From: Kiritimatiellia bacterium
GTDB taxonomy: Bacteria; Verrucomicrobiota; Kiritimatiellia; RFP12; UBA1067
Length of the DNA stretch: 61,413 nucleotides
NCBI GenBank assembly: GCA_017628025.1
Contig: JAGBZX010000025.1
Location: 1-61,413, forward strand
Reading direction: 5' to 3'
Within the stretch, counting starts at the first letter, position 1; each line of letters starts with the position of its first letter. A program made the translations under genes and the position numbers. Below are positions 1 through 61,110 of this stretch, in pieces. Under the pieces are notes generated by a model that saw only the letters and a list, made by a program, of their open reading frames with translations, was not told the origin of the DNA and did not search any database.

Positions 1-861
1 ACCTTGTATTATTTTTGAAAGGTCTTCAAACTCACCAGCAAAATTAGAATCTGGATAATGATCAAAATCATCATATTTAATTGTCAATCTACCATTTTTA
101 CGCATCTGAGGCAATCCGACCCAAGGCGATGCAATATAAAAAGATTGCTTGAGACCAAACAATTCCTTTAAAGGCGCATCGGGAATTAACTTACGTGTTG
201 TTATTTCTTCATGCACACCATAAACCAATTCTGCATCCTCAGAGAATAAGACTTTTTCAGCATCCATAAGCCACTTTATATCATAATACTCCATGGAAGT
301 AGCATAATTATAAGCATCATATATCCTTGCATTTAAATGCTCTTTATACTTACTAAGGCATTCTGTATATTTTGACCTGAATACTTGATATACCTTCTCT
401 AAATCAGCAGCATAATCTTCCCCTATACCCACGGCGCGAATAAATGCTGCGTATGCTCTTTTCGAGTCGCCTTGAGACATTTTTTCTTTATACGATTCAA
501 ATACTTTTTTTGTATATACATCAAGTTTTTCTAATACTTCACAAAACTGTCCACGCCCTAATTCATTTTCAAAATCCGAAGATGCCATCTCTACAGAAAG
601 TAACGATAACATTTCACCCCTATTCAACCGTTCACCAAGTATTGCAATCTGAGTAGCCCAACCTTTAAGAGGACGCCACGCGATCAACTCAAGCAATAAA
701 GGATATCTCGCGCTCAGGTTAACAATCTGATGTATCATTCTAGCCAATGTACTCTTACCAGAGGCATTAATGCCAGATAATACCGTTATTGAATCTAATT
801 CAATATCAGCACTTTTTATAGCCTTACTATTTACCACAGACAATTTATATTTTGCGCTCAT
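1..861 (-). CDS. P-loop (AAA/ABC-like) ATPase, N-terminal 287 aa; C-terminus lies beyond the window edge
   Basis: Frame is open from ATG (complement 859-861) to position 1. It is missing from the ORF track only because no stop lies in the window. Walker A GINASGKST at aa 30-38. Preceded by promoter-leader module A1. Confidence 0.6.
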   Translation of the reverse strand, partial: MSAKYKLSVVNSKAIKSADIELDSITVLSGINASGKSTLARMIHQIVNLSARYPLLLELIAWRPLKGWATQIAILGERLNRGEMLSLLSVEMASSDFENELGRGQFCEVLEKLDVYTKKVFESYKEKMSQGDSKRAYAAFIRAVGIGEDYAADLEKVYQVFRSKYTECLSKYKEHLNARIYDAYNYATSMEYYDIKWLMDAEKVLFSEDAELVYGVHEEITTRKLIPDAPLKELFGLKQSFYIASPWVGLPQMRKNGRLTIKYDDFDHYPDSNFAGEFEDLSKIIQG

Positions 862-920
862 TTTAATCTCTCTATTTTTATAACTTCCTGTATATACAAT
901 CTACTAAATCAAAAGACCAA

Positions 921-1011
921 ACTCTCGCCCCATGGGGTATGTAGCCGAATACCTCATCACAAATTTTTGAATTATTCTATTGTGCCTCTTCAACACAACG
1001 ATATTATACCA
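921..1011 (-). promoter_or_regulatory. Promoter-leader module A1 (TGGTATAAT extended -10 at 1003-1011; palindrome GCCCCATGGGG at 927-937) driving the ATPase gene
   Basis: Aligns by eye with modules at 3866-3974 and 4296-4403. Conserved core is GGNATATTCGGCTACATNCCCCATGGGG. Confidence 0.55.
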
Positions 1012-1087
1012 TTTAGACGATAAAATTACCACAATTACAGTAATTTTAACCAATAAAAACCTATTAGGATCAAATAGTAATTTTTTA

Positions 1088-1115
1088 GGTGAAGGTCAAA
1101 GGTGAAGGTGAACAG
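1088..1115. repeat. GGTGAAGGTCAAAGGTGAAGGTGAACAG low-complexity boundary repeat (copy 1)
   Basis: Near-identical copies at 1712-1740 and 4101-4127, plus an inverted copy at 4253-4279. Confidence 0.8.
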
Positions 1116-1120
1116 TGGCG

Positions 1121-1141
1121 GTTTTTAGCCGTGTAGAGGTG
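1121..1141. repeat. Left arm of the inverted repeat bracketing the GxxExxY fragment (GTTTTTAGCCGTGTAGAGGTG)
   Basis: Its reverse complement is found at 1454-1473 (CACCTCTACACGGCTAAAAC), 20 of 21 matched. Confidence 0.85.
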
Positions 1142-1409
1142 GAGATGGGGAGAAGTTTGGGACCACTGTGCGTGTTTCGAATCGATATGATCCAAAGTTT
1201 ATGAGAAGAGCCTTCTTGAATCCTGTAATCTTCAAATAGTTAAGAACTTGCGCGTAATGCTCTCCGGCAAGTGCACTGACCGCCTTTAGTTCCAGGATCA
1301 ACTCTCCGTTCACCACCAAATCCGCAAAATACTCGCCCAACAAATACCCATCCTCATCTCTGACCTCAAGTTTCTTCTGTGATTCTACACAATATCCCGC
1401 TTTCTCCAA
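1125..1409 (-). pseudogene. GxxExxY protein (PD-(D/E)XK nuclease-fold family) fragment, N-terminally truncated
   Basis: Translation contains ...GEYFADLVVNGELILELKAVSALAGEHYAQVLNYLKITGFKKALLINFG. It lacks about 35-40 N-terminal residues typical of the family. The 'start' is TTG, the upstream frame hits a stop within 60 nt, and the C-terminal tail is encoded by the inverted-repeat arm. Confidence 0.6.
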
Positions 1410-1453
1410 CCGGTGCTTCCGGCATTCTCCATCTCTTATTCCCTTCCCTTCTA

Positions 1454-1473
1454 CACCTCTACACGGCTAAAAC
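1454..1473. repeat. Right arm of the inverted repeat bracketing the GxxExxY fragment
   Basis: Reverse complement of 1121-1141. Confidence 0.85.
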
Positions 1474-1483
1474 AGACAACGCT

Positions 1484-1543
1484 CCGTACGTCGCAATAAC
1501 ATTGAGGAATATTCGCCGATTAGCTGTCATCTTAGGGGTTGGG
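1484..1543. repeat. Repeat module X (copy X1), about 58 bp
   Basis: Aligns with 1619-1676 and 4037-4095. The minus strand reads CCCAACCCCTAAGATGACAGCTAATCGGCG..., a vestigial ATG-initiated stub. Confidence 0.7.
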
Positions 1544-1552
1544 TGTTAACTA

Positions 1553-1618
1553 TTTTATGTAACTTTTTTGTTAATTCTTCTAAACTAAGTCCCACGTTTA
1601 CGAATTCAAGCCCAACCT
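1553..1618. repeat. Repeat module Y (copy Y1), about 65 bp
   Basis: TTTTATGTAACTTTTTTGTTAAT... aligns with 3975-4036. Confidence 0.7.
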
Positions 1619-1676
1619 GTACGGTGCTATAATATTCAAAAATATGAGACGATTAAGAATCATTGAGTAGTTGGAG
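1619..1676. repeat. Repeat module X (copy X1')
   Basis: Diverged copy of 1484-1543 and 4037-4095. Confidence 0.55.
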
Positions 1677-1781
1677 TTGTGAGTTCGAGTTGGAGAGTGG
1701 CGGTTTTATTTAGGTGAAGGTCAAAATTGATGGTGAACAGTGAAAGTATAGATGGTAATTTAATTATTTAATTATTGAAGT

Positions 1782-2372
1782 TTATTTTCCTATAAACACA
1801 CCTAGATCTGGCCTATCCAACTCTTTATACAAAATATCTAATATTCTTAACAAATGATTTGACTCGCGCTTAATAGCCTCCTTAGATGCCTGCAAAATCT
1901 CATAAAGTTCATTAATTTCAGATGGCATCAATTTACTATTAAGACCTCTCAATATTACACTGGCATTTATTCTCTGGCATGTCGTGACAAAATTTAACAA
2001 AGTATTTGCGTCCGAAATTTCACTAGGCCCTCTTGCTGGTATCGCACTATGTATATACGGCATCACAGCCAATACTTCCGTGTCCGTATCAGAAGCCGTC
2101 GCATATTTTTGAATCATATTAAATGTCAGGACTACATTAAGCCGCACTTTTTCCTCAGACGGATCATCTGTCACAATTTTAACCAATGTATCACATAAAT
2201 TATTCCTATAGGTCAATGCTTTAATAGCCCCGATTATTGCATCGTGTGCTTTAATATACATAAGATGTCGTATATTAGCTTCTGATGCAACTCTCTGCGC
2301 TTTTATTGATGCGCATCGATTTATTACAGCACCTACTATTACCCCAACCAATCCAATAATAGCTTCACTCAT
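1782..2372 (-). CDS. Hypothetical membrane-anchored protein (one N-terminal TM helix plus a helical domain)
   Basis: 196-aa ORF with a hydrophobic N-terminus (IIGLVGVIVGAVI). I recognise no family motif. Bracketed by inverted GAGTTCGAG-type repeats. Confidence 0.5.
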   Translation of the reverse strand: MSEAIIGLVGVIVGAVINRCASIKAQRVASEANIRHLMYIKAHDAIIGAIKALTYRNNLCDTLVKIVTDDPSEEKVRLNVVLTFNMIQKYATASDTDTEVLAVMPYIHSAIPARGPSEISDANTLLNFVTTCQRINASVILRGLNSKLMPSEINELYEILQASKEAIKRESNHLLRILDILYKELDRPDLGVFIGK

Positions 2373-2472
2373 AAAAATCTTCTTGTTAATTTATTTTCTG
2401 ACACATCATTAAACTCTAACTCGAACCTTTCCGCTATCAGCGGCTCACTACTCTGCGAACTCACAAAAAAAA

Positions 2473-2682
2473 CTATCGTTCTTTTGACTTCAGTTCCGCT
2501 ATAACATTCTCTAGCACATACCCATCACTCATCAACTGAAGACCATACTTTGCATCTGACAATTGCTTGTATGTTTCTGTTGAATAGAAGATATCCAACG
2601 CCTTCTCTTCATCAACTTCAAGCGCTGAAGCAAGGGCCATAATGATTCTCGCCTGCTTTCTCCATAAAACATTGTCACGCAT
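2473..2682 (-). CDS. DUF3791-like small protein
   Basis: 69 aa. The pattern ...ALDIFYSTETYKQLSDAKYGLQLMSDGY... is typical of DUF3791 partners of DUF3990. It starts 8 nt after the DUF3990 stop, with GGTG in the gap. Confidence 0.55.
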   Translation of the reverse strand: MRDNVLWRKQARIIMALASALEVDEEKALDIFYSTETYKQLSDAKYGLQLMSDGYVLENVIAELKSKER

Positions 2683-2690
2683 AATACACC

Positions 2691-3185
2691 TTATAAAATT
2701 TCAGCTCCAATAAACTTAAGACATGTATCAATCACAACTTGAGAACGAATGCATATCTGATGATTTACCTTTTTATAAATTAATTGGCCCAATGCCTGCT
2801 CTGCTGTTATTATGCCATTTTCATAATCTTCGACGGTATCAATTACATTATCATTAGCAACGCCACCTTCTATCACATCGTACTGAAGCTGCAATTCTCC
2901 TCCACGCCTACAATCAATCACATAATTTAGCCATTCCATATCATACGCATCAAACACCTTATAACGCGCACCTAACATATTCTTGGCCATCGCTTCATTA
3001 AAATCATAAGTGTTCAACACTGGCTTACCATATCGAGTACGACTTGCAATAACCCTAGCCCAAGATTTAGCTTGATCTGAAAGACTTGAGAGATAGAACC
3101 CTCTACCAAAATCCACCCTGGCGCGCCCAGCTTCCACCTTTGGATTCGCTACACTAACATCAGACCCGTGAAACAACTGAATCAT
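2691..3185 (-). CDS. DUF3990-like protein (possible ADP-ribosyltransferase-fold enzyme)
   Basis: Begins MIQLFHGS. Motifs are LFHGS (aa 4-8), GRGFYLS (aa 27-33) and DVIEGG (aa 103-108). I moved the start to ATG 3185, which forms an ATGA overlap with the stop of the upstream ORF. Confidence 0.65.
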   Translation of the reverse strand: MIQLFHGSDVSVANPKVEAGRARVDFGRGFYLSSLSDQAKSWARVIASRTRYGKPVLNTYDFNEAMAKNMLGARYKVFDAYDMEWLNYVIDCRRGGELQLQYDVIEGGVANDNVIDTVEDYENGIITAEQALGQLIYKKVNHQICIRSQVVIDTCLKFIGAEIL

Positions 3186-3460
3186 ACACCGGCCTCCCAA
3201 TTTTTCAAAGTTGTTATGGTATCTTCTGCAACCCAATCGAGACTTTGGGTATGCAAGTCATCATACATTGCGATTAAACGATTGTGAATCAAGTCTTGAG
3301 CTTTGAGCCGATCATGCATAACCTGACCCGAAACACCAAGCTTTCGAGCGCCACTCTCAATCGCCATCACAGCAAAGTGTATGCGCTTATGTACATCAGA
3401 TTTATTGAACGCATTCATACCCATAACTCTCCCTTCATCCAATCTTGTAAATCCCATCAA
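3182..3460 (-). CDS. DUF3791-like small protein (start may be the internal ATG at 3424)
   Basis: 92-aa ORF. ...FAVMAIESGARKLGVSGQVMHDRLKAQDLIHNRLIAMYDDLHTQS... resembles DUF3791. Translationally coupled to DUF3990. Confidence 0.55.
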   Translation of the reverse strand: MMGFTRLDEGRVMGMNAFNKSDVHKRIHFAVMAIESGARKLGVSGQVMHDRLKAQDLIHNRLIAMYDDLHTQSLDWVAEDTITTLKNWEAGV

Positions 3461-3544
3461 TCCTGTAAAACCCTCTCATCAAACAATCTCCAATTCCTCT
3501 ATTCACCTTCACCTCTGAAAAACTCGAACTCCAACTCCTACTAT

Positions 3545-3712
3545 CTATTTCCCGTTCGGATTTACCGAAGTGACTGTACCATCTGGTAATTGCCAAACAA
3601 GTTTTCCATTCAAGGAATAAACATTCGCTATTCCCTTGCGCCGATTTTCTTCCTGCGCAAGTTGAACGGCTTCAGATATAATTCGATATAACTTTGTAGT
3701 AATCTCGCTCAT
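3545..3712 (-). CDS. Small hypothetical protein, 55 aa (MSEITTKLYRIISEAVQLAQEENRRKGIANVYSLNGKLVWQLPDGTVTSVNPNGK)
   Basis: Below the ORF-track length cutoff. Strong SD AAGGAGG 6 nt upstream. Its ATG overlaps the TGA of the preceding micro-ORF (ATGA). Confidence 0.45.
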   Translation of the reverse strand: MSEITTKLYRIISEAVQLAQEENRRKGIANVYSLNGKLVWQLPDGTVTSVNPNGK

Positions 3713-3831
3713 AAATCCTCCTTAAATTTCAAATACAATTCTTCTGACAATATCAATGCGTCATCACTTTTATGACCTTCTGCTACAACGACAATTGCAC
3801 CTGCAAGTATATATAATTTCGGCGTTACCAT
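3709..3831 (-). CDS. Micro-ORF, 40 aa (MVTPKLYILAGAIVVVAEGHKSDDALILSEELYLKFKEDL)
   Basis: First ORF after promoter-leader module A2. Preceded by GGAG-rich leader sequence and coupled to the 55-aa ORF. Confidence 0.3.
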   Translation of the reverse strand: MVTPKLYILAGAIVVVAEGHKSDDALILSEELYLKFKEDL

Positions 3832-3865
3832 TCTTCAACTCCATTCTTAACTCCATTACTCCAAA

Positions 3866-3974
3866 CTCCCCCACTTCTCAACATATTCCACCACATGGGG
3901 TATGTAGCCGAATATCCCATTACAAACTTTTGATTTCTATTATCACATCTCTTTAACACAACATTATTATATCA
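3866..3974 (-). promoter_or_regulatory. Promoter-leader module A2 (TGATATAAT at 3966-3974; degenerate palindrome CCACATGGGG at 3891-3900)
   Basis: Aligns with A1 and A3. Sits upstream of the micro-ORF pair. Confidence 0.55.
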
Positions 3975-4036
3975 TTTTATGTAACTTTTTTGTTACTTTT
4001 TACACTAAGCACCACATCCACGCTTCCAAACTCAGA
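3975..4036. repeat. Repeat module Y (copy Y2)
   Basis: Aligns with 1553-1618. Confidence 0.7.
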
Positions 4037-4095
4037 GCGTATATCGCAATGATGTTCAAGATTTCTGGCGGTTAGAAGTCATTTTAGGGGTTAGG
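4037..4095. repeat. Repeat module X (copy X2)
   Basis: Aligns with 1484-1543. The ATG stub is degenerate here (ATGACTTCTAACCGCCAGAAATCTTGA). Confidence 0.7.
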
Positions 4096-4100
4096 ATTTA

Positions 4101-4127
4101 GGTGAAGGTCAAAGGTGAAGGTGAACA
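4101..4127. repeat. Left arm of the inverted repeat bracketing the four-helix-bundle fragment
   Basis: GGTGAAGGTCAAAGGTGAAGGTGAACA. The reverse-complement-like arm is at 4253-4279. Confidence 0.8.
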
Positions 4128-4252
4128 AAGGTGATTGTCATTAATGCGAAGCGCTCATCTAAAGGAAATTTCTTAATTTCCTCATACACGAGCCCCACAA
4201 GCTCAACCGATTTTTGCCAGACTATTAATTTTCTATAACCAAAATCTTCCAT
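4109..4252 (-). pseudogene. Four-helix-bundle protein (23S rRNA intervening-sequence protein / Avd-like family), N-terminal fragment only
   Basis: MEDFGYRKLIVWQKSVELVGLVYEEIKKFPLDERFAL matches the characteristic N-terminus of the family. The frame then runs into the boundary repeat and stops after 47 codons. Confidence 0.6.
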
Positions 4253-4279
4253 TGTTCACCTTCGCCTTTCACCTTCACC
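4253..4279. repeat. Right arm of the inverted repeat bracketing the four-helix-bundle fragment
   Basis: TGTTCACCTTCGCCTTTCACCTTCACC, an imperfect reverse complement of 4101-4127. Confidence 0.8.
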
Positions 4280-4295
4280 TCTACCACCCAACTCC

Positions 4296-4403
4296 ATCAC
4301 TCCCTCACTTCTCAACATATCCCGCCCCATGGGGCATGTAGCCGAATATCCCACTCTCGAATTGTTTTGAGTTTTCTCTCTCATAACGCTTACATTAATA
4401 TCA
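4296..4403 (-). promoter_or_regulatory. Promoter-leader module A3 (TGATATTAAT at 4394-4403; perfect 12-bp palindrome GCCCCATGGGGC at 4324-4335)
   Basis: Aligns with A1 and A2. Sits upstream of the four-helix-bundle fragment. Confidence 0.55.
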
Positions 4404-4489
4404 TTTTTTGTATTTTTTTGAAAGTTTCCTCCTCCACCTAACCTTGCACCTAACCTTGCCTTGGAAGAAAATTTCATGTCCCTTTTCTT

Positions 4490-4518
4490 AAAATGAGAAT
4501 TATGTGCGGAAAATTCTT
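4490..4518 (+). repeat. AATGAGAA motif copy M1 (AAAATGAGAATTATGTGCGGAAAATTCTT)
   Basis: 29-bp motif also at 27922-27950 and 28073-28101, and inverted at 61082-61110. Confidence 0.8.
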
Positions 4519-4715
4519 ACCACATTGCCACTTTTGTGATATTTCGCAAAAATTAACATTATATGCTGATTACTACAAACTATATCGGCTTTATACTGAA
4601 GAGAAAACTCCTCCTAAGCCATCCGCACCGACAGCCGCGCCGTGAGGGTTTTGTTTGCTAGGCTTTCTTAATTCCCACATACAGTGGGATATGACCATTG
4701 GGATCTTAATTTAGA

Positions 4716-6146
4716 TTATTTGCCAAGAATTTTTTCAAAGTATGGCAGAACTGCATCACGCCAAACCGCATAACCCTTGGGGTTAGTATGAAGAAGGTCT
4801 TCCATATAAATCTTAGTGTTGCCCTTCTCATCAACTAGTTTATCGTTAAAATCAACCCAGATCACATTCTCTCCATCAGCAAAAGTTTTAGTAATTTTGT
4901 TAACCGCTTCGTTTCTTATACGGTTTTTATCCTCACTCGACGCGCCGCGAGGAAAGATCGGAAGCAAAAGCACTTTTGCTTCTGCGTGTTTAGAACGAAT
5001 AACCTCTAAAATGCGCTTTGTGCCTTCTGCAATATCACTAGGCTTATCTCTACCATTATTAGTGCCAATCATCAACATGAATAATTTAGCCTTATATCCT
5101 TCAAGCTCTCCATACATCATTCTCCAAAGAACATGCTGCGTGCGATCACTACCATAACCAAGATTAAGAATAGAATACCTTTTCTTTAGTTCTGCAAAAA
5201 GAGCTACGCCTTCACCGCCTTTACGCTCCCAGCGATGCGTAATAGAATCTCCTACAAATACTAAATCATATTCCTTTGGACCATTGATAATTTCATTTCT
5301 CTTTTCAAGTGTGCGAGTTTTCCACCAAGGTGATTTTGCAAAAAAGTTCGTTGGTTTTATCGGCGCAGGAATTTTGTTGGATTTCTTAGGCGCAACTCTA
5401 CCTTTGACGACTGCTCCCTTAGGAGCATTAAGCGCGCGATCTATAATTGGCACCAATTCTTTAGCTATGACTTCATAACCATAATCATTAGGATGAAGAC
5501 GATCATTCATAAATTTCTTTGTATCGCCCTTTTCATCAACAAGCTTATCATTAAAATCACACCAGATTACCTTCTTCCCATCACAAAACTCAACGATAAC
5601 TTCATTTACAACTTTATTGCGCTTCCGAACTGCATCAGAATCTGACGCGCCTGATGGATAGATGGCCGTAAGCAGAATTCTCGCCTCTGGCTGTTTTTGC
5701 TTTATAATTTCGAGGATTTTCTTTATACCATGAATCGTATCAATTGGTGGCTCTTTCTCAAATGAATGGTGACCCGCGTTATTGCATCCAATTAATAAAA
5801 CTACAACCTTTGCTTTGTAGCCATCAAGTTCACGACCTTGCGTTATGCGCCAAATAACATGCTCCGTCCTGTCCCCCGAGACACCTAAATTAAGAGCCTT
5901 GCGAGGGCCATCAACGAAGTTATCTTTCCAAGATTGCTTCTGTTCCCAAAAATGCGTAATACTATCGCCGATAAATACAACATTAGCGACACTGCTAGTT
6001 ATACTATTAAGAAATTGTTCGTGACGCTTTAATTGCCAAGCATCTTTTTTATCACCCCATTTATTAGGTGTTACCGCACGAATATCTGCATGCAATGACG
6101 AAGCTAAAACTAAAGACAAAACAAACACGAAGCGCGTAAAATTCAT
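4716..6146 (-). CDS. Secreted tandem SGNH/GDSL hydrolase (two PAF-acetylhydrolase-like esterase domains)
   Basis: Signal peptide. GDSITHFWE and GDSITHRWE, G(V/Y)SGDRT, IGCNN/IGTNN and LHPN/LHTN blocks each occur twice. Confidence 0.8.
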   Translation of the reverse strand: MNFTRFVFVLSLVLASSLHADIRAVTPNKWGDKKDAWQLKRHEQFLNSITSSVANVVFIGDSITHFWEQKQSWKDNFVDGPRKALNLGVSGDRTEHVIWRITQGRELDGYKAKVVVLLIGCNNAGHHSFEKEPPIDTIHGIKKILEIIKQKQPEARILLTAIYPSGASDSDAVRKRNKVVNEVIVEFCDGKKVIWCDFNDKLVDEKGDTKKFMNDRLHPNDYGYEVIAKELVPIIDRALNAPKGAVVKGRVAPKKSNKIPAPIKPTNFFAKSPWWKTRTLEKRNEIINGPKEYDLVFVGDSITHRWERKGGEGVALFAELKKRYSILNLGYGSDRTQHVLWRMMYGELEGYKAKLFMLMIGTNNGRDKPSDIAEGTKRILEVIRSKHAEAKVLLLPIFPRGASSEDKNRIRNEAVNKITKTFADGENVIWVDFNDKLVDEKGNTKIYMEDLLHTNPKGYAVWRDAVLPYFEKILGK

Positions 6147-6166
6147 AACTGATGCTCCTTTAAAAA

Positions 6167-6240
6167 TGGTTGTCCGGCCTGGATTCGAACCAGGACTAAG
6201 GGTATCAAAAACCCCTGTGCGGCCACTACACCACCGGACA
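6167..6240 (-). tRNA. tRNA-Gln (anticodon UUG), CCA encoded
   Basis: Cloverleaf folded by hand: acceptor TGTCCGG/CCGGACA, anticodon stem GGGGT/ACCCT with loop TTTTGAT, T arm CCTGG-TTCGAAT-CCAGG. Confidence 0.85.
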
Positions 6241-7008
6241 ATCGCAAAGCAATTTAGTGCGTATTATATCATATTCTACACCATTTGGTATAGATAAATT
6301 ATTGGCAAATCCAAAAACCGTAGCTCCAGAGCCTGACATCCTAGCCATTTCTGCGCCCGCGCCTTTAAGAAATTCAAGAGCCTCTCCTATTTTTGGATAC
6401 AAATCTATCGCCGCATTTTCTAACTTATTTGGACCAAAGGACGGTTTGTTTTTATAATTTTGAAACACTAATTTTGTTGACGAATGAACGCGAGGATTGA
6501 CTAAATAAACATCTTTATTAGGCAACTCTGAAGGACGAGAGATACATTCAACTAATTCTCCTCGCCCGCGCATTAAAACTGCAGAACGGTAATGTTGTGC
6601 CAAAACTAGCGCAGGAACATCGCTACCAACAAAAGCGGCTACCTGAGCTAATTCTTCTGGCGAGCATCCTAGGTTAAACATTTGATTTAGTAGCCGCAAG
6701 ACAGCAGCAGCATCTGCGCTACCACCACCTAAACCTCCACCAACAGGAATCTTCTTGTCAACATTAATATCAACTCCACTCATTAGTGAGGAAGGCTTAT
6801 ATGACTTAAGTGCTTGATATGCCTTAATACACAAGTCATCCTTGTAACCCAAATTAGAAGTCACAAGCGAGTCATTTCTTTTAATAATCTCAATAGTATC
6901 ATTAAGCTCGATTGGCAAAACAATCGAGCTTAATTCATGGTATCCATCTTCCCTCACGCCCAATATATCAAGCGTGAGGTTTACCTTAGCATAAGCTAAT
7001 ATTTTCAC
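6226..7008 (-). CDS. ispE: 4-diphosphocytidyl-2-C-methyl-D-erythritol kinase
   Basis: KVNLTLDILGVREDGYHEL and GGGLGGGSADAAAVL GHMP-kinase motifs. 260 aa. Confidence 0.85.
   Translation of the reverse strand: MKILAYAKVNLTLDILGVREDGYHELSSIVLPIELNDTIEIIKRNDSLVTSNLGYKDDLCIKAYQALKSYKPSSLMSGVDINVDKKIPVGGGLGGGSADAAAVLRLLNQMFNLGCSPEELAQVAAFVGSDVPALVLAQHYRSAVLMRGRGELVECISRPSELPNKDVYLVNPRVHSSTKLVFQNYKNKPSFGPNKLENAAIDLYPKIGEALEFLKGAGAEMARMSGSGATVFGFANNLSIPNGVEYDIIRTKLLCDCPVV
6257..6271 (-). promoter_or_regulatory. Stable-RNA type promoter TGATATAATACGCAC for tRNA-Gln, embedded in the ispE 3' coding end
   Basis: Identical 15-mer upstream of rpmJ (54611-54625). The -10 hexamer ends 22 nt before the tRNA 5' end. 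Confidence 0.6.
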
Positions 7009-8357
7009 TTCTGGATCTGGACTTTCTTCATCATTTGCATCATTGCAATACCAGAGGCTGCAGGTCCAATCGCTTTAATTTCATCAGCAGAAATGCGGAT
7101 AAGCGACTCGTGCTTGTTACCCTTCTTCGTTGAATACCACGCTATACCAGCAGAATTATCCTGCGGCAGAACATCAAAGACGAGCGTTTTTATTTGCTCA
7201 CGCTCTGCCGATTCAACATTCTCAAGTATCACGCTCTCCAATGCCTTTAAAAGAGAATTTACCGAAACGAAACCGACGAGATAATTGTTCGCTTTCTGAA
7301 TTTCTGGCAACGTATTTATTAGGCGGCTAGAAATCGCAGCGCTAGGCTTATAATTTCTAACTGTCACGGTCGTGCGCTTCATGGAAGGAGCCTCAACAGC
7401 GGAGGATTTAAGAGCTTCAAAATCAGCACGAAGGACATCGCAATTTACCTTACCACTGCACTTGGCTTCTTTTATGCTCTTAACGCCCGAAAGTAAAGAC
7501 TTGGGGTCTATTGTTATATCAACGAAGCCTTCATTGCATACAAAAGAAATAAACGAAGAAATATCTATGCCATTTTTCTTTAACGTTTCAATGATTTTAT
7601 CGCATCCAACCTTTTTAGAATTAGCCCCCTTATTCATCGCTATCATGTAAAGCGCATCACTGGGGATATTTGAAAGAATTGAATTATCCAACAATTTATC
7701 GCCGATTTTATCTAAGTTTGAACCCTTTACAACAGTCATAAAATGACGAATATCAATGCCAGCGTTCGTCATTTTTAAAGAGAAATCGAAACTATCAACA
7801 TTCTTTAAAAGCTCTGCTTTTGCATGAGAGTTAAGTTCGGACTGCTCTAAAGCACGGCGAGTTACCTTAGCGCGAATGATATCCTTACCAATTTTCTTTT
7901 CAGCTAGCTTCGTGTATTTTAGTATCGCACGAGCACGGCGGGGATCAGATGAAACTCCTACCCAATCTCCTGACTTAGCAAACACTGCATATAATTCATT
8001 GGATACTTTAATAACACCGTTTGACTCTACAGCATCTGGGTTGTTTTGTAAAATTTCAGCCTTTGTAGAGGCAACTGGATAAAGGCAACCGCCGCAAATC
8101 TCACCATGATCAATTATTCCAACAATCATGGCACCGACACCAGTGCGTGACTCGCCGAAAATCATCGCTAAAGGATTGCTAGAGATTGCCTGCGTCGCCA
8201 TCATGCTCAGCATAGGATTACCTAGCATCATACCTAAATTTGAAATATTTTCGACAAGCGTTTGCGTGTCATTTAACTTTACGTAACCTGCCAACTCATC
8301 CTTTGCAGAAAGCTGCAACGAGAAGCAAATCGCGACAAACATTAATATTCTTTTCAT
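7005..8357 (-). CDS. Hypothetical secreted protein
   Basis: 450-aa ORF with a signal peptide and a GGAG SD. ATGA overlap with ispE. No family recognised. Confidence 0.6.
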   Translation of the reverse strand: MKRILMFVAICFSLQLSAKDELAGYVKLNDTQTLVENISNLGMMLGNPMLSMMATQAISSNPLAMIFGESRTGVGAMIVGIIDHGEICGGCLYPVASTKAEILQNNPDAVESNGVIKVSNELYAVFAKSGDWVGVSSDPRRARAILKYTKLAEKKIGKDIIRAKVTRRALEQSELNSHAKAELLKNVDSFDFSLKMTNAGIDIRHFMTVVKGSNLDKIGDKLLDNSILSNIPSDALYMIAMNKGANSKKVGCDKIIETLKKNGIDISSFISFVCNEGFVDITIDPKSLLSGVKSIKEAKCSGKVNCDVLRADFEALKSSAVEAPSMKRTTVTVRNYKPSAAISSRLINTLPEIQKANNYLVGFVSVNSLLKALESVILENVESAEREQIKTLVFDVLPQDNSAGIAWYSTKKGNKHESLIRISADEIKAIGPAASGIAMMQMMKKVQIQK

Positions 8358-27739: not shown

Positions 27740-27748
27740 ATTATATCA
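27740..27748 (-). promoter_or_regulatory. Extended -10 promoter TGATATAAT, 8 nt from ATG 27731 (predicted leaderless)
   Basis: The gap TTACAATT is followed directly by the ATG. Confidence 0.6.
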
Positions 27749-27921
27749 TTTTTGCTTAAAAAAGTGAAGCGAAACAGTTCGTTTTCGTGCATGTGTGATG
27801 TCCAAATCTAAAAGCAAGGATTACTTGCGTTTACTTTTGGACTCAACTGCAGAAACATACCCTACTTAGTAAAAAAGCGATTTCAAAGCACATGCCAATG
27901 AAATTCAATAACGCTTTATCC

Positions 27922-27950
27922 AAAATGAGAACTATCTGCGGAAATTTCTC
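27922..27950 (+). repeat. AATGAGAA motif copy M2
   Basis: AAAATGAGAACTATCTGCGGAAATTTCTC. Confidence 0.75.
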
Positions 27951-27969: not shown

Positions 27970-28022
27970 TTACTGGGAGATTTGGAGGTTACTGGGAGAT
28001 TTGGAGGCTTGGAGATTCGGAG
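27970..28022. repeat. 19-bp tandem repeat TTACTGGGAGATTTGGAGG, 2 copies plus a partial
   Basis: 27970-27988 and 27989-28007 are identical. A degenerate third unit follows. Confidence 0.85.
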
Positions 28023-28072: not shown

Positions 28073-28101
28073 AAAATGAGAATTATATGCGGAAAATTCT
28101 T
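28073..28101 (+). repeat. AATGAGAA motif copy M3
   Basis: AAAATGAGAATTATATGCGGAAAATTCTT. Confidence 0.8.
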
Positions 28102-57127: not shown

Positions 57128-58588
57128 TTATTTCCTTCCGCGAAGACGCATCCACGTTGGTATCTTTACCATTCTTGCTTCACGGCTTTGATTTGTAGAG
57201 ACAGTATCTATTGTACCGATTGATGGCGATTCAAGCTCTGCTATGCGTGCCATAAGCACCTGTTGATTTTGAGCTTCGCGGCGCATGAGCTCATCATTTT
57301 GCTTGCGTAAGTTTAAAATTTCCTTCTCGCGGAAATTTAACTTCTCGCGCAAAAGCGCAACTTCCTGATTAATCTGTGCAATATCTTTATCGCTCACCAA
57401 TCTACGCGATTGTTCAGCCTTTAATAGACGTATCGTTTCAGACTGCTCTGAAATCTTGCGCTCGCGTTCTGCAGCCGTTTTTTCAGCCATGCGGCGATAA
57501 TCCTCGTATTCTGTCCTTATTTGTGCAGTACGGGGATCTTCAGGATTTGAACGCAAAGCCAAACGAGTCATTTCTGCCGCGTCAGCGCCTGCTCTCTTAA
57601 GAAGATTACGCCTACGCTCAGTTAATCGTTCAATCCTGTTTTGGTATCTAGCACACATTTCTTCAAACTCGGCTTTTTCTGCTTCTAAGGTATTGGCTAA
57701 TTCAGTTGCCTCGTCAGAAATTATCGAATAGACTGCTGCTTGCATATTAGCTATTTCACTTGCAGCCTGAGGAAGACGCTCTAGATCTTCCCTAAGTTTT
57801 CCTATCGTAAGATCCTTATCAGCTAGCTCAGTAGCGCGTTGCTCAAGTTGAGTTTTATTAACATCAAGAATTGACTCTAATTCCCTTACTCTTCTTTCAT
57901 CAATAATTGTTTTCTCAACAATTTTCTCTACTTCAACAGGAACTTCTACGCGTACTTCTTTTATAACTTCCTTTTCAACTATCTTTTCTACTTCAACTGG
58001 AACCTCAACGCGTACTTCTTTAATAACTTCCTTCTCTACTATCTTTTCTACCTCAACTGGCACTTCAACGCGCACCTCTTTTACAACTTCCTTCTCTACT
58101 ATCTTTTCTACCTCAACTGGCACTTCAACGCGCACCTCTTTTACAACTTCCTTCTCTACTATCTTTTCTACCTCAACTGGCACTTCAACGCGCACCTCAT
58201 TTACGAGAGATACATCTTCTTTCTCTACTTCAAAAAACTCCTCGGCCTTCGGCTCTTCGATTTGTTGTTCACTTACCTCTATAGTTTCTTCTTCAAATGG
58301 TGCACGCACTTCAACAACCTTAGCAATTGGAGGTAAGCGCCCAGAAGAAATAAGCGCATCTGCCGCGGCTTTATTATATGGCCCTCGCGGATTTCCATCT
58401 CCCAAATCAATTGAAAAGCGCATATCTAAAAACGCTACATCCTCAACTTTACGCCAAGTAAAATTATCGGAGGAAATTTCTTGTCCTGGCTGTATACGCC
58501 CTACCTTTGCCCACGCAATAAGTTGCTCTCTAGACTCTGGACCGAAAACTTCGTCTGCAGTTCTTAAATACCACTTTTCATTTTGCAT
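57128..58588 (-). CDS. GYF_2 (DUF4339)-domain protein with five 20-aa repeats and a long C-terminal coiled coil
   Basis: N-terminus KWYLRTADEVFGPESREQLIAWAKVGRIQPGQEISSDNFTWRKVEDV. Repeats of VEVPVEVEKIVEKEV(V/I)KEVR. C-terminal heptad-rich region. Confidence 0.7.
   Translation of the reverse strand: MQNEKWYLRTADEVFGPESREQLIAWAKVGRIQPGQEISSDNFTWRKVEDVAFLDMRFSIDLGDGNPRGPYNKAAADALISSGRLPPIAKVVEVRAPFEEETIEVSEQQIEEPKAEEFFEVEKEDVSLVNEVRVEVPVEVEKIVEKEVVKEVRVEVPVEVEKIVEKEVVKEVRVEVPVEVEKIVEKEVIKEVRVEVPVEVEKIVEKEVIKEVRVEVPVEVEKIVEKTIIDERRVRELESILDVNKTQLEQRATELADKDLTIGKLREDLERLPQAASEIANMQAAVYSIISDEATELANTLEAEKAEFEEMCARYQNRIERLTERRRNLLKRAGADAAEMTRLALRSNPEDPRTAQIRTEYEDYRRMAEKTAAERERKISEQSETIRLLKAEQSRRLVSDKDIAQINQEVALLREKLNFREKEILNLRKQNDELMRREAQNQQVLMARIAELESPSIGTIDTVSTNQSREARMVKIPTWMRLRGRK
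57911..58198. repeat. 60-bp in-frame tandem repeat array (about 4.8 units) inside the GYF gene
   Basis: Units at 58021-58080 and 58081-58140 are identical. Neighbouring units differ by a few synonymous or V/I changes. Confidence 0.9.
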
Positions 58589-58591
58589 AAA

Positions 58592-59386
58592 TTACCTCCT
58601 ACCAAAAAGGCGACTGCCAAATCTGTGTTTATTCGCTGCTGCTATTTCACGCTGAGCAGCGGCCTCAAGCGCTTTTAATTTATCGCTAGAAACATCTTTA
58701 AAAATACCTTCTAACCTTACTGGAGGAGTAGCCCCAGATGGTTCTTCGAGAACTTCAGCAGTGACCACTCTTCTGGGAGGTGGTGCTACTTCAATCACGC
58801 GCTCAACTATCTTCTCAACTGGCACCTCGACGCGAACTTCTTTTATGACTTCCTTCTCGACGATTTTCTCTACCTCAACTGGCACCTCTACGCGCACTTC
58901 TTTTATCACTTCCTTCTCGACAATCTTCTCTACCTCAACTGGCACCTCTACGCGAACTTCTTTTATCACTTCCTTCTCGACGATTTTCTCTACCTCAACT
59001 GGCACCTCTACGCGCACTTCTTTTATCACTTCCTTCTCGACAATCTTCTCTACTACAACTGGAGGAGGATCTTGCTCTGCTAGAAGTTCATGCATCTTAT
59101 AGAGTTTTGCGCCTGTAGGCATTTCGCCTCGAGCCTGAAGACCTATAACGAGCGTTCGATTAAATGGACCAAAGAGTTTCCCAGGCTCTGTTTCTACTAT
59201 CCATTTCATCTCTAGCTCTGGCACTGTTTGTGCTGGCATCCACGAGCGTCTATCTGAAGATATTAAGCTAGCCGGTTCAATACGCCCATCGCGACACCAA
59301 GCTACAAGTTGCGTCATTGTTGCAGGGCCATAGACTTTAGAGTCTGCCGCTTTTACGTACCATTTCTTTTCTTCTGACATATACAA
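58592..59386 (-). CDS. GYF_2 (DUF4339)-domain protein with four 20-aa repeats (paralogue of the downstream gene)
   Basis: KKWYVKAADSKVYGPATMTQLVAWCRDGRIEPASLISSDRRSWMPAQTVPEL, then VEKIVEKEVIKEVRVEVPVE four times. The start could be ATG 59380. Confidence 0.7.
   Translation of the reverse strand: MYMSEEKKWYVKAADSKVYGPATMTQLVAWCRDGRIEPASLISSDRRSWMPAQTVPELEMKWIVETEPGKLFGPFNRTLVIGLQARGEMPTGAKLYKMHELLAEQDPPPVVVEKIVEKEVIKEVRVEVPVEVEKIVEKEVIKEVRVEVPVEVEKIVEKEVIKEVRVEVPVEVEKIVEKEVIKEVRVEVPVEKIVERVIEVAPPPRRVVTAEVLEEPSGATPPVRLEGIFKDVSSDKLKALEAAAQREIAAANKHRFGSRLFGRR
58799..59056. repeat. 60-bp in-frame tandem repeat array with 120-bp higher-order periodicity
   Basis: 58861-58920 is identical to 58981-59040. 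Confidence 0.9.
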
Positions 59387-59404: not shown

Positions 59405-60628
59405 TTACATTGCTTTTACTAGGGCTTCTGCAAACTGCGAACAGCTTACTTCTTTTGCGCCTTCCATTAAGCGCGCAAAATCATAAGTAACAGTTTTTTC
59501 TGCAATTACTTTATCCATCGCGGAAATAATTAAATCTGCCGCTTCCGTCCACCCCATATATCTAAGCATCATTTCACCAGAAAGTATTAATGAACCTGGA
59601 TTTACTTTATCTAGCCCAGCATACTTTGGAGCAGTTCCATGGGTTGCTTCAAAAACAGCAACACCGGTTTGATAATTAATATTTGCTCCTGGAGCTATAC
59701 CAATACCACCGACTGTCGCTGCTAGCGCGTCGGAAACATAATCACCATTCAAGTTAAGTGTTGCAATTACGTCGTATTCTGCAGGGCGTGTTAATATCTG
59801 TTGTAAAAACGCATCACAAATACAATCTTTAATTACTATTTCGTTTCCAGTTTTGGGATTTTTAAGTTTACACCATGGTCCTTCGCCAATAGGCTCGGCA
59901 AAGTATTCGCGCCTTGCAAGTTGATACCCCCAATCGCGGAACGCACCTTCTGTAAACTTCTGTATATTCCCTTTATGGACGAGAGTTACAGACTTGCGAT
60001 CATTTGTAATAGCGTAATCAATAGCTGCGCGAACGAGGCGTTCTGTACCTTCTATTGAAACTGGCTTAATTCCTATTGAAGAAGTTTCTGGGAAGCGGAT
60101 TTTTTTTACTCCCATTTCTTCAATTAAGAATTTTTTGATTTTATCAGCGCCTTCTGTGCCGCTCATCCACTCAATGCCTGCGTAGATATCTTCGGTGTTT
60201 TCTCTAAAAACTACCATATCGGTAGATTCAGGGTGTTTAACAGGAGAAGGTACACCTTTAAAGTAGCGAACAGGTCTAAGGCAGACATAGAGATCTAATT
60301 CTTGACGCATTGCGACATTAATAGAACGAATTCCGCCACCCACTGGAGTCGTCAATGGACCTTTTATAGAGACAAGGGCTTCTTTACAAGTATCAAGAGT
60401 TTCTTGAGGCAGCCACTGACCAGTTTTCTTAAATGCCTTTTCGCCAGCGAGAACTTCGCGCCATTGAATGGAACGGGACTGTCCATATGCCTTTTTAATC
60501 GAGGCGTTCCAAACGCGCAAAGCTGCACTTGTTATATCTGGACCTATTCCATCACCTTCTATATATGGAATCACAGGACAATCAGGCACACATAGCGCGC
60601 CATCACACATAGAAATTGTATTTTTCAT
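59405..60628 (-). CDS. icd: NADP-dependent isocitrate dehydrogenase
   Basis: [45 protein letters not shown]. 407 aa. Confidence 0.95.
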
Positions 60629-60660: not shown

Positions 60661-60784
60661 ACTCATTTACCTTGTAATTCTCTATTTACCTTGCAACTCT
60701 CCATTTACCTTGCAACTCTCTATTTACCTTGCAATTCTCCATTTACTCTTTTACCTTGCAATTCTCCATTTGCCTTGCAATCAA
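60661..60784. repeat. 19-bp direct tandem repeat CYATTTACCTTGCAAYTCT, about 6 units (one with an 8-bp insertion)
   Basis: Read directly from the sequence. The array begins about 20 bp upstream of the icd -10 element. Confidence 0.9.
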
Positions 60785-61081: not shown

Positions 61082-61110
61082 AAGATTTTTCCGCATATAA
61101 TTCTCATTTT
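61082..61110 (-). repeat. AATGAGAA motif copy M4 (inverted orientation)
   Basis: The minus strand reads AAAATGAGAATTATATGCGGAAAAATCTT. Confidence 0.8.

Follow-up and report, generated by a model that had tools for sequence, protein, structure and literature searches.

Gene content and layout of the accessory region

The stretch analyzed here, referred to as the window, comprises 61,413 nucleotides (nt) of a Kiritimatiellia contig (JAGBZX010000025.1, assembly GCA_017628025.1, positions 1 to 61,413). Our subject is its segment 862-4480, a run of small genes and gene remnants separated by long, repeat-rich spacers. A sequence-only reading of this DNA had described the segment as a hotspot at which cassettes built from shuffled repeat modules are exchanged, and the analysis presented here supports that description. 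To place the segment among its relatives, we compared the window with metagenome contigs, contigs of metagenome-assembled genomes (MAGs) and replicon contigs, numbered L001-L050.

All gene units of the segment lie on the minus strand, as had been stated, and their identities were checked with profile hidden Markov models (HMMs) (Table 1). The island contains a candidate anti-phage trio together with a transmembrane (TM) protein, modules with an ATPase of the ABC type, and decayed selfish genes. The trio had been read as DUF3791-DUF3990-DUF3791. The first two assignments hold, but the third gene is not DUF3791 by either HMM or BLASTP and matches PDC-M13C instead, so that the trio represents a complete PDC-M13 A/B/C candidate defence system (PADLOC; PDC-M13A E = 5.5e-13, PDC-M13B E = 6.5e-49, PDC-M13C E = 4.6e-11). 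The pair of micro open reading frames (ORFs) preceding it is also found upstream of the trio in 9 contigs. The ATPase gene at the window start is the first gene of two ATPase-plus-partner modules located past that start. None of the TM protein, the micro-ORFs and the ATPase partners had a match in PHROGs, among PDB sequences or in NCBIfam. Rfam, applied at the gathering threshold to the whole window and permissively to 800-4800, returned only tRNAs, with none in the region and no rRNA in the window. The spacing of the genes is indeed unlike that of the surrounding DNA: by a crude gene call, the median intergenic gap across the window is about 3 nt, and the large gaps concentrate in 862-4480.

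Table 1 Features of the accessory region and its edge, in window coordinates.
Feature	Position	Strand	Remarks
AAA_15/AAA_21 ATPase gene, 5' part	1..861	-	start at 861; 443 aa in L001
Module A copy 1: TGGTATAAT (1003-1011) and DUF6922 stub	922..1014	-	upstream of ATPase
AAAACCGCCACT, then orphan Q' arm	1084..1126	-	
P arm (1443-1472), GxxExxY pseudogene, P' arm (1123-1152)	1123..1472	-	30-nt inverted repeat, 90% complementary
GxxExxY/PDDEXK_3 fragment	1125-1409	-	profile positions 34-115 of 116; PF13366 and TIGR04256
Wzx-like stub no. 2 (1663 to ~1584), second GTAAC-A6-GTTAC palindrome (1552-1579), Wzx-like stub no. 3 (1530-1485)	1485..1663	-	
Discrete cassette: composite 5' arm, PDC-M13 A/B/C, TM gene, composite 3' arm	1699..3527	-	98% identity in L035
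TM protein, 196 aa, N-terminal TM helix	1782-2372	-	
Third trio gene, 69 aa	2473-2682	-	PADLOC PDC-M13C match
DUF3990 gene	2691-3185	-	HMM
DUF3791 gene	3182-3460	-	HMM
Two overlapping micro-ORFs, 40 and 55 aa	3545-3831	-	without family match
GTAAC-A6-GTTAC palindrome (3974-4001) and module A copy 2: TGATATAAT (3966-3974), DUF6922 stub	3858..4001	-	
CCTAACCCCTAAA, then Wzx/MATE-like 5' stub no. 1 (ATG 4082-4080)	4008..4096	-	
Q' arm, TTCACC repeats	4097..4136	-	unit conserved in L025, L028, L031
Four-helix-bundle/23S_rRNA_IVP fragment	4109-4252	-	PF05635 profile positions 1-31 of 106; also TIGR02436
Q arm, GGTGAAG repeats	4249..4280	-	contains ribosome-binding region and start of four-helix-bundle stub
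Module A copy 3: degenerate extended -10 TGATATTAAT (4394-4403) and DUF6922 stub (ATG 4384-4382, ~30 codons)	4291..4427	-	

The spacers are composed of hairpin arms and gene stubs

The repeats reported for the spacers are real and far exceed what chance would produce. GGTGAAGGTCAAAGGTGAAGGTGAACA occurs in three direct copies (1088, 1713 and 4101, plus strand) and one inverted copy (4253-4279, minus strand), where none is expected by chance, and a shorter inverted copy of the same type lies at 3496-3518. GAGTTCGAGTTGGAG is found at 1681 (+) and 3523 (-). The three-copy promoter-leader module, module A, was recovered with cores at 931, 3894 and 4328, the other three-copy module as a 46-nt repeat with a fourth copy just past the window start, and the two-copy module as a 28-nt repeat at 1552 and 3974. 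All of these are confined to the island region, with zero copies in the remainder of the 61 kb. Treating them as an abstract vocabulary, however, overlooked two features: the inverted pairs that bracket the units (4280-4249/4131-4100, 1472-1443/1152-1123 and 3540-3496/1748-1666), and the nature of module A and the 46-nt module as stubs of genes. The near absence of C claimed for the coding strand of the spacers applies to the 5' leaders only, which appear as G-free runs on the plus strand (3466-3516, 3825-3896, 3933-3980 and 4265-4323), whereas whole spacers contain 4-21% C and the downstream arms are pyrimidine-rich.

More specifically, the spacers draw on a lineage-wide vocabulary of four types of piece. 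The first consists of the complementary purine 5' and pyrimidine 3' arms of hairpin elements of the type that carries 23S rRNA intervening sequence (IVS) proteins, namely P/P' for GxxExxY and Q/Q' for the four-helix-bundle family. ORF-less or ORF-stub derivatives of these elements form the second type, the promoter and 5' stub of a DUF6922-AbiEii toxin-antitoxin operon the third, and 5' stubs of a Wzx-like gene the fourth. Cargo genes are placed either between arms or within them, and blocks delimited by such pieces were found in other genomes, in other contexts.

The GxxExxY unit is enclosed by the P and P' arms, whose duplex reaches z = -6.0, within a range of -5.5 to -6.3 for arm duplexes across the locus. 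The gene itself is a pseudogene, with its native ATG (1432-1430) out of frame and a residual ORF at 1409-1125. Alignment to intact genes revealed that about 33 N-terminal codons are gone, including the GxxExxY motif; they were apparently lost through recombination between ATGGAGAA and an internal ATGAGAA. Many full-length homologues of 134 aa exist at 88-96% identity, mostly on short metagenome contigs, and related loci were gathered from the surroundings of such homologues and by one metagenome DNA scan with the P' arm. Four of them (L009, L012, L014 and L024) retain an intact P - GxxExxY - P' arrangement, in which the P arm, (T/A)TAGCCGTGTAGAGGTG..., lies directly upstream of the start codon and P' (...CACCTCTACACGGCTAA) encodes a C-terminus ...SPSPxLHG and the stop codon. 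The P' arm in the window encodes the corresponding C-terminal ...SPSPPLHG and stop, and this LHG-stop tail is common to most GxxExxY homologues, down to 60% identity. The same four loci also carry ORF-less P - loop - P' palindromes with loops of GAGTTCGAGTTGG- or GTTGTAGTTGG-type strings; since such strings fill these loops, they explain the GAGTT-type GAGTTCGAG strings in the window. In L012 (59% GC; 1-190, 1505-1665 and 5050-5280), the P arm is tandemly repeated in 2-3 copies with a 35-nt period, on the 5' side of palindromes that lack an ORF and stand between RelB/YafQ, AAA_14 and GxxExxY genes.

Similar brackets were found around GxxExxY genes of distant bacteria. On a Bacteroides finegoldii plasmid (L050 1434-1463/1876-1905), the gene lies between radA and a gene for an FAD-dependent protein, within a 30-nt, 90% complementary inverted repeat of the same purine/pyrimidine polarity, the 5' arm consisting of CAGAGGAC-type purine-rich repeats. 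The Treponema saccharophilum gene has an inverted repeat of 16 nt (L049 1440-1455/1885-1900). Judging from these sequences, the inverted-repeat bracket of GxxExxY genes is not confined to this lineage. A scan of viral contigs with the P' and Q' arms gave no match.

The second hairpin surrounds the four-helix-bundle fragment. Strings of the GGTGAAGG type are its purine-rich 5' arm Q and pyrimidine-rich 3' arm Q', which are 91% complementary over 32 nt (4249-4280 with 4100-4131), and the 211-nt Q-stub-Q' unit folds at -84 kcal/mol (z = -8.0). About 37 residues of the stub are family-like, and its tail is encoded by the 3' arm. Truncation of this gene in place was considered and rejected, because the same stub, of 47-51 aa within its hairpin, is propagated in other genomes. 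Every one of its close homologues is a stub of 32-69 aa, and the unit Q - stub - Q' - CCTAACCCCTAAA - Wzx stub is kept in polysaccharide loci and toxin-antitoxin islands of other contigs. The Q stem contains one compensatory change (window 4243/4126): the window has an ATG start against GTG in other copies, and the paired base of the 3' arm is T against C (ACCTTTGT against ACCTCTGT), with the C retained in the same-species contig L044.

Promoter-bearing and membrane-protein gene stubs complete the vocabulary

Module A is the 5' end of a type IV toxin-antitoxin operon, DUF6922-AbiEii, made up of an extended -10 promoter and the first 20-30 codons of the DUF6922 antitoxin gene. An alignment of the three copies shows TGnTATAAT in all of them, in degenerate form in copy 3. 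The intact 116-aa DUF6922 gene of L009 begins MGEKTLENSVLGYSAAYPTGAERFLEKG, and window copy 3 reads MREKTQNNSRVGYSATCPMGRDMLRSEG (BLASTP to residues 1-30). Because the Pfam domain begins only at residue 33, what the window holds is a stub; neither an intact DUF6922 antitoxin nor an AbiEii gene is present in the window, and only the promoter and residues 1-30 have been kept. As the earlier reading had supposed, units have been re-promoted: the TGnTATAAT promoter of the operon now lies upstream of the four-helix-bundle stub, the micro-ORFs and the ATPase. A scan with the sigma-70 consensus did not detect module A because it lacks a -35 element, and the promoter call thus relies on the extended -10. 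A scan of genome contigs with the module A core returned one match, inside the CoA-transferase gene of an unrelated MAG and therefore attributed to chance. AAATGATATAAT occurs in addition at 27740-27751, 8 nt upstream of the start of a housekeeping gene.

The 46-nt module (ATGAC.CCTAA.CG.CGAAT...) is the 5' end of a gene for a Wzx/MATE-like membrane protein of 515-521 aa, which is intact within polysaccharide gene clusters at L018 2749-4314 and L037 1117-2664; the Wzx-like identity is given by sub-threshold HMM hits of the MatE, MATE and MOP types only. A homologue search with the stub yielded 164 clusters, every one of ≤122 aa. Because the homologues are all short compared with the intact gene, the stub is a propagated multi-copy module; the idea of a local fragment of a flippase gene was dropped, as the search gave stubs only. 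Truncation, another claim of the sequence-only reading, is evident in the GxxExxY gene, in DUF6922 and in the window's Wzx-like stubs, which retain 15-45 codons.

Several ORFs reported by the gene caller (904-1053, 3825-3959, 4256-4477 and 1085-1195, minus strand; 49, 44, 73 and 36 aa) are translated module A stubs or repeat arms and not genes, and the same stubs account for many "hypothetical proteins" of 46-122 aa in databases. For annotation, this means that many small "hypothetical proteins" here are translated repeat arms or gene stubs.

The PDC-M13 trio travels with the TM gene as an arm-bounded block

The third inverted pair encloses the largest unit. A composite 5' arm at 3540-3496, made up of GAGTTGGAGTTCGAG and GAGGTGAAGGTGAA (GAGTT-type plus Q-like), pairs with a composite 3' arm at 1748-1666 around the trio and the TM gene, with a duplex energy of -54.5 kcal/mol (z = -5.5). 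The 3' arm includes the junction motif AAAACCGCCACT.

This block has an almost identical counterpart elsewhere. L035, a 108-kb contig of an NCBI MAG, matches window 3514-1688 at 5673-7499 with 98% identity over 1828 nt. By alignment, the block ends in AGTTCGAGTTTTT (~3527) and just past AAAACCGCCACT (1699), and both flanks are unrelated to those of the window: upstream lie a DUF6922-like stub and a RAYT-like gene (REP-associated tyrosine transposase, REP standing for repetitive extragenic palindrome), and downstream a Wzx stub and an antiterminator of the UpxY/NusG type. Other loci break elsewhere. In L037 and L038 the match comprises the trio only and stops at window 2490, after which comes either the intact Wzx-like gene or the RAYT-like gene, and in L039 module A is placed directly upstream of the trio. 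L044 and L045, from the same species and 99.2% identical to the window, match down to 1552 and then diverge; this breakpoint is the junction of the GTAAC-A6-GTTAC palindrome and a -10 box, past which both contigs carry an intact module A and different small genes. The swapping of cassettes that had been proposed is thus documented by the L035 block, by the divergence of L044 and L045, and by the presence of the exact DUF3990 protein in other genomic contexts.

The wider comparison points in the same direction. In related rumen and gut metagenome islands, RelB/YafQ, Phd/ParE, AbiEii, AAA_14-DUF4143, zeta-like, Schlafen/AlbA_2 and HTH genes lie between the same repeats. When proteins were clustered at 90% identity, cargo proteins had 82 and 118 members, compared with 2-7 for four of five housekeeping proteins. 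The cluster of the valyl-tRNA synthetase (ValRS) includes proteins named Kiritimatiellae MAG, and the names of the samples indicate ruminant gut metagenomes. Furthermore, the P/GxxExxY elements occur on contigs ranging in GC from 0.41 to 0.59, and the number of arm repeats differs between copies. An invariant locus with repeats found nowhere else would have spoken against a hotspot; instead, strains differ and the repeats recur in other contigs. No target-site duplications were recognized at the junctions that were read.

Past the window start, L001 extends the island. Two ATPase modules (L001 15286-19823) encode 443, 207 and 89 aa and 435 and 218 aa, respectively; their ATPases resemble the AriA, PD-T4-4_A, HEC-02A and NsnB types, and the partners are without family match. 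They are separated by a fourth Wzx stub (79 aa), and past the second module lies a further G-rich leader with a four-helix-bundle-like start. At L001 20200-21060, the GC content rises abruptly to >60%, with ORFs resembling those of insertion sequences at the contig end, which represents either a recent insertion or an assembly break.

Recombination between dispersed arms and stubs as the probable route of turnover

Taken together, we consider it probable that 862-4480 belongs, as its proximal part, to a strain-variable accessory island located downstream of an SGNH-hydrolase gene in a rumen Kiritimatiellia bacterium, with spacers consisting of hairpin arms and gene stubs, turnover by recombination at these pieces, and RNA stems that would be processed. 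Turnover would proceed by homologous or microhomology-mediated recombination and slippage between dispersed arms and stubs, within and between genomes, and each event would leave a stub or an orphan arm behind. The variable number of arm repeats and the deletion within the GxxExxY gene at a microhomology are consistent with slippage and microhomology. At the level of expression, three TGnTATAAT promoters would drive the units, and the arms in the transcripts are predicted to form stems of 25-45 bp that sequester the GGAG-rich leaders. By analogy with rRNA intervening sequences, these stems are likely substrates of RNase III, in which case processing would yield a separate RNA for each cassette.

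Several points weigh against this interpretation. Any function of the stems at the RNA level is purely inferred, and the support for conserved hairpins is thin: covariation is minimal, the Q stem showing a single compensatory pair and the independent P elements being too few. The region also has orphan 3' arms, and a search for a purine partner of the TTCGAC-type 3' arms found none. Moreover, the junction motif AAAACCRCCWCT is repeated at the junctions between 3'-arm modules, and its position at module boundaries could indicate a site-specific process and not general recombination.

Such a process is the essence of the first alternative, in which the PD-(D/E)XK protein GxxExxY, or a partner, would cut the arm hairpins or cruciforms, and repair would copy or move the element together with its loop contents, making the arms a dedicated cassette carrier. 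The conserved junction motif, the cassette ends located in arms and the range of GC over which the elements occur agree with this proposal, as do the inverted repeat that encloses the GxxExxY ORF both in the window and in distant phyla, and the many near-identical intact copies on short contigs, which indicate multiple copies. The window copy is a pseudogene, however, and no nuclease activity is known for the GxxExxY family, whose function is listed as unknown (PMC3424549). No target-site duplications were seen at the junctions that were read, and breakpoints fall outside the arms too (2490, 1552). We therefore regard element-driven mobilization as unlikely. A more general version, which we offer as speculation and rate equally low, is that IVS-protein hairpin elements serve generally as a system for carrying gene cassettes, in Kiritimatiellia as well as in other gut bacteria, with cargo in the loop, a PD-(D/E)XK protein or a host factor acting on the arms or on AAAACCRCCWCT, and stems that insulate the RNA of each cassette.

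An integron-like array, a cluster of attC sites lacking integron integrases (CALIN), would also suit small cassettes that share one orientation, often hold toxin-antitoxin pairs and alternate with imperfect palindromes of ~130-230 nt. The palindromes would then act as attC-type sites, and the integron integrase that recombines them would be encoded elsewhere. We consider this very improbable. By inspection, the arm ends read TTTAGCC...GGCTAAA and not RYYYAAC...GTTRRRY, and their order relative to the ORFs is opposite; the GxxExxY and four-helix-bundle ORFs sit inside the palindromes and not between them, gene stubs form part of the spacers, and neither the window island nor L001, followed up to 20.2 kb, encodes an integrase. 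The locus is not a canonical integron, and readings of the repeats as attC, dif or CRISPR sequences were ruled out on inspection.

A single-strand transposition of hairpin-bounded units by a Y1 (HUH) transposase, as in REPIN/RAYT systems, is suggested by the 340-aa RAYT-like protein that adjoins the trio in L035 and L038 (Y1_Tnp 33 bits; REP_Tyr_transpos E = 1e-15). Yet the REP hairpins on either side of this gene are different ones of its own, and they are found neither in the window nor at 38 of 40 loci; no such gene lies in this island, which leaves the mechanism slightly less credible still than the integron-like array. The RAYT-like gene lies at L035 3938-5240 and L038 1095-2161, and its REP hairpins, AAAGTGGCACAAATAGGTCTGACCTGTTTGTGCCA, number 8 copies in L035.

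Finally, a chimeric MAG contig joined through repeats would fit with short-read contigs that terminate inside the region (L003 and L004 at 4490, L002 at 2503), but it is the least credible explanation, because independent assemblies of different samples (L001, L002, L008 and L043) reproduce the same order at 99.9% identity.

Other repeats in the window

Repeats of different kinds were observed at the island edge and beyond. A 23-nt intergenic motif, TTTCCGCAYATAATTCTCATTTT, with a TATAAT-like core, is present at 4490-4512 (-), 27922-27944 (-), 28073-28095 (-) and 61088-61110 (+), that is, in 4 copies against 0 expected; one copy marks the SGNH-side island edge, and two Logan contigs end exactly at 4490. 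At the same edge, CAAGGTTAGGTG occurs twice (4435-4459). Pyrimidine-rich 19-mers are tandemly repeated at 27970-28022, and repeats of the 19-mer GCAAGGTAAATGGAGAGTT type fill 60664-60771, upstream of a gene starting at 60628. Leaders with purine- or pyrimidine-rich repeats seem to be a more widespread trait of this genome. In two adjoining minus-strand genes, 60-nt tandem repeats in 4-5 copies with 92-93% matches (57912-58204 and 58814-59062) lie inside the coding sequence and therefore encode 20-residue protein repeats.

Relation to known systems

Variable toxin-antitoxin and defence islands are known already, as are IVS elements. In the literature, we found no description of IVS-protein hairpin elements outside rRNA, of ORF-less or stub derivatives of them, or of their arms as the ends of exchangeable cargo blocks, and the hairpin-cassette architecture appears to be undescribed. 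The "IVS proteins" of the GxxExxY and four-helix-bundle families are very common proteins that lack an explanation. The locus and its relatives show such genes in hairpins outside rRNA, where they spawn ORF-less derivatives and where the arms mark the ends of exchangeable toxin-antitoxin and candidate-defence blocks. This offers a testable handle both on the function of these elements and on the assembly of accessory islands in a poorly studied gut phylum.

A close resemblance is to the 23S rRNA IVS of, for example, Coxiella burnetii and Leptospira (S23p/four-helix-bundle), which have loop proteins of the same families and terminal inverted repeats that form a long stem. The Coxiella element is closed by a terminal stem of 28 bp and carries an ORF in its loop; tandem purine-rich repeats precede the start codon, and RNase III excises the element (PMC4990558). 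Such purine-rich repeats of variable number just upstream of the start codon, and decaying ORFs, are shared with the units described here, and the elements are regarded as selfish (PMC4990558). In contrast to these IVS, whose insertion site is helix 25 or 45 in the 23S rRNA gene, the window units are found in an accessory island, with protein-coding genes on either side; derivatives with no ORF or with an ORF stub are propagated, and unrelated cargo (the PDC-M13 trio and the TM gene) occupies the loop of one arm pair.

With integron arrays and CALINs, the island shares co-oriented small cassettes rich in toxin-antitoxin genes, imperfect palindromes between them and strain-variable content. It differs in having no R'/R'' boxes and no integrase seen, ORFs inside the palindromes, and promoter-bearing stubs between the cassettes. 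Miniature inverted-repeat transposable elements (MITEs) are comparable in their terminal inverted repeats, the absence of a transposase and their many copies, features that apply to the ORF-less P palindromes and the four-helix-bundle-stub unit.

Correia elements of Neisseria are MITE-like and are processed by RNase III. Like these and the REPIN-RAYT systems, the island has short palindromic, non-autonomous derivatives of an ORF-bearing element that would be co-transcribed with their neighbours and can carry promoters. Here, however, the ORFs are GxxExxY and four-helix-bundle genes and not transposases, no target-site duplication is seen, and the copies cluster in islands within the sampled DNA; the REPs of the RAYT gene are not those dispersed here, and the RAYT-like gene itself is limited to L035 and L038.

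The trio corresponds to the PADLOC system PDC-M13 (DUF3791, DUF3990 and a small third protein) in that all three components are co-located, with AriA/PD-T4-4/HEC-02-like ATPases as neighbours. PDC-M13 is a candidate defence system only, and here it moves with the TM protein as one arm-bounded block. The pdif modules of Acinetobacter plasmids are likewise discrete, often toxin-antitoxin units with short inverted flanking sites in varied backbones. The island resembles them in its discrete flanked modules in different backbones; it differs in that no XerC/D-type site was recognized and that its arms are long, low in complexity and variable.

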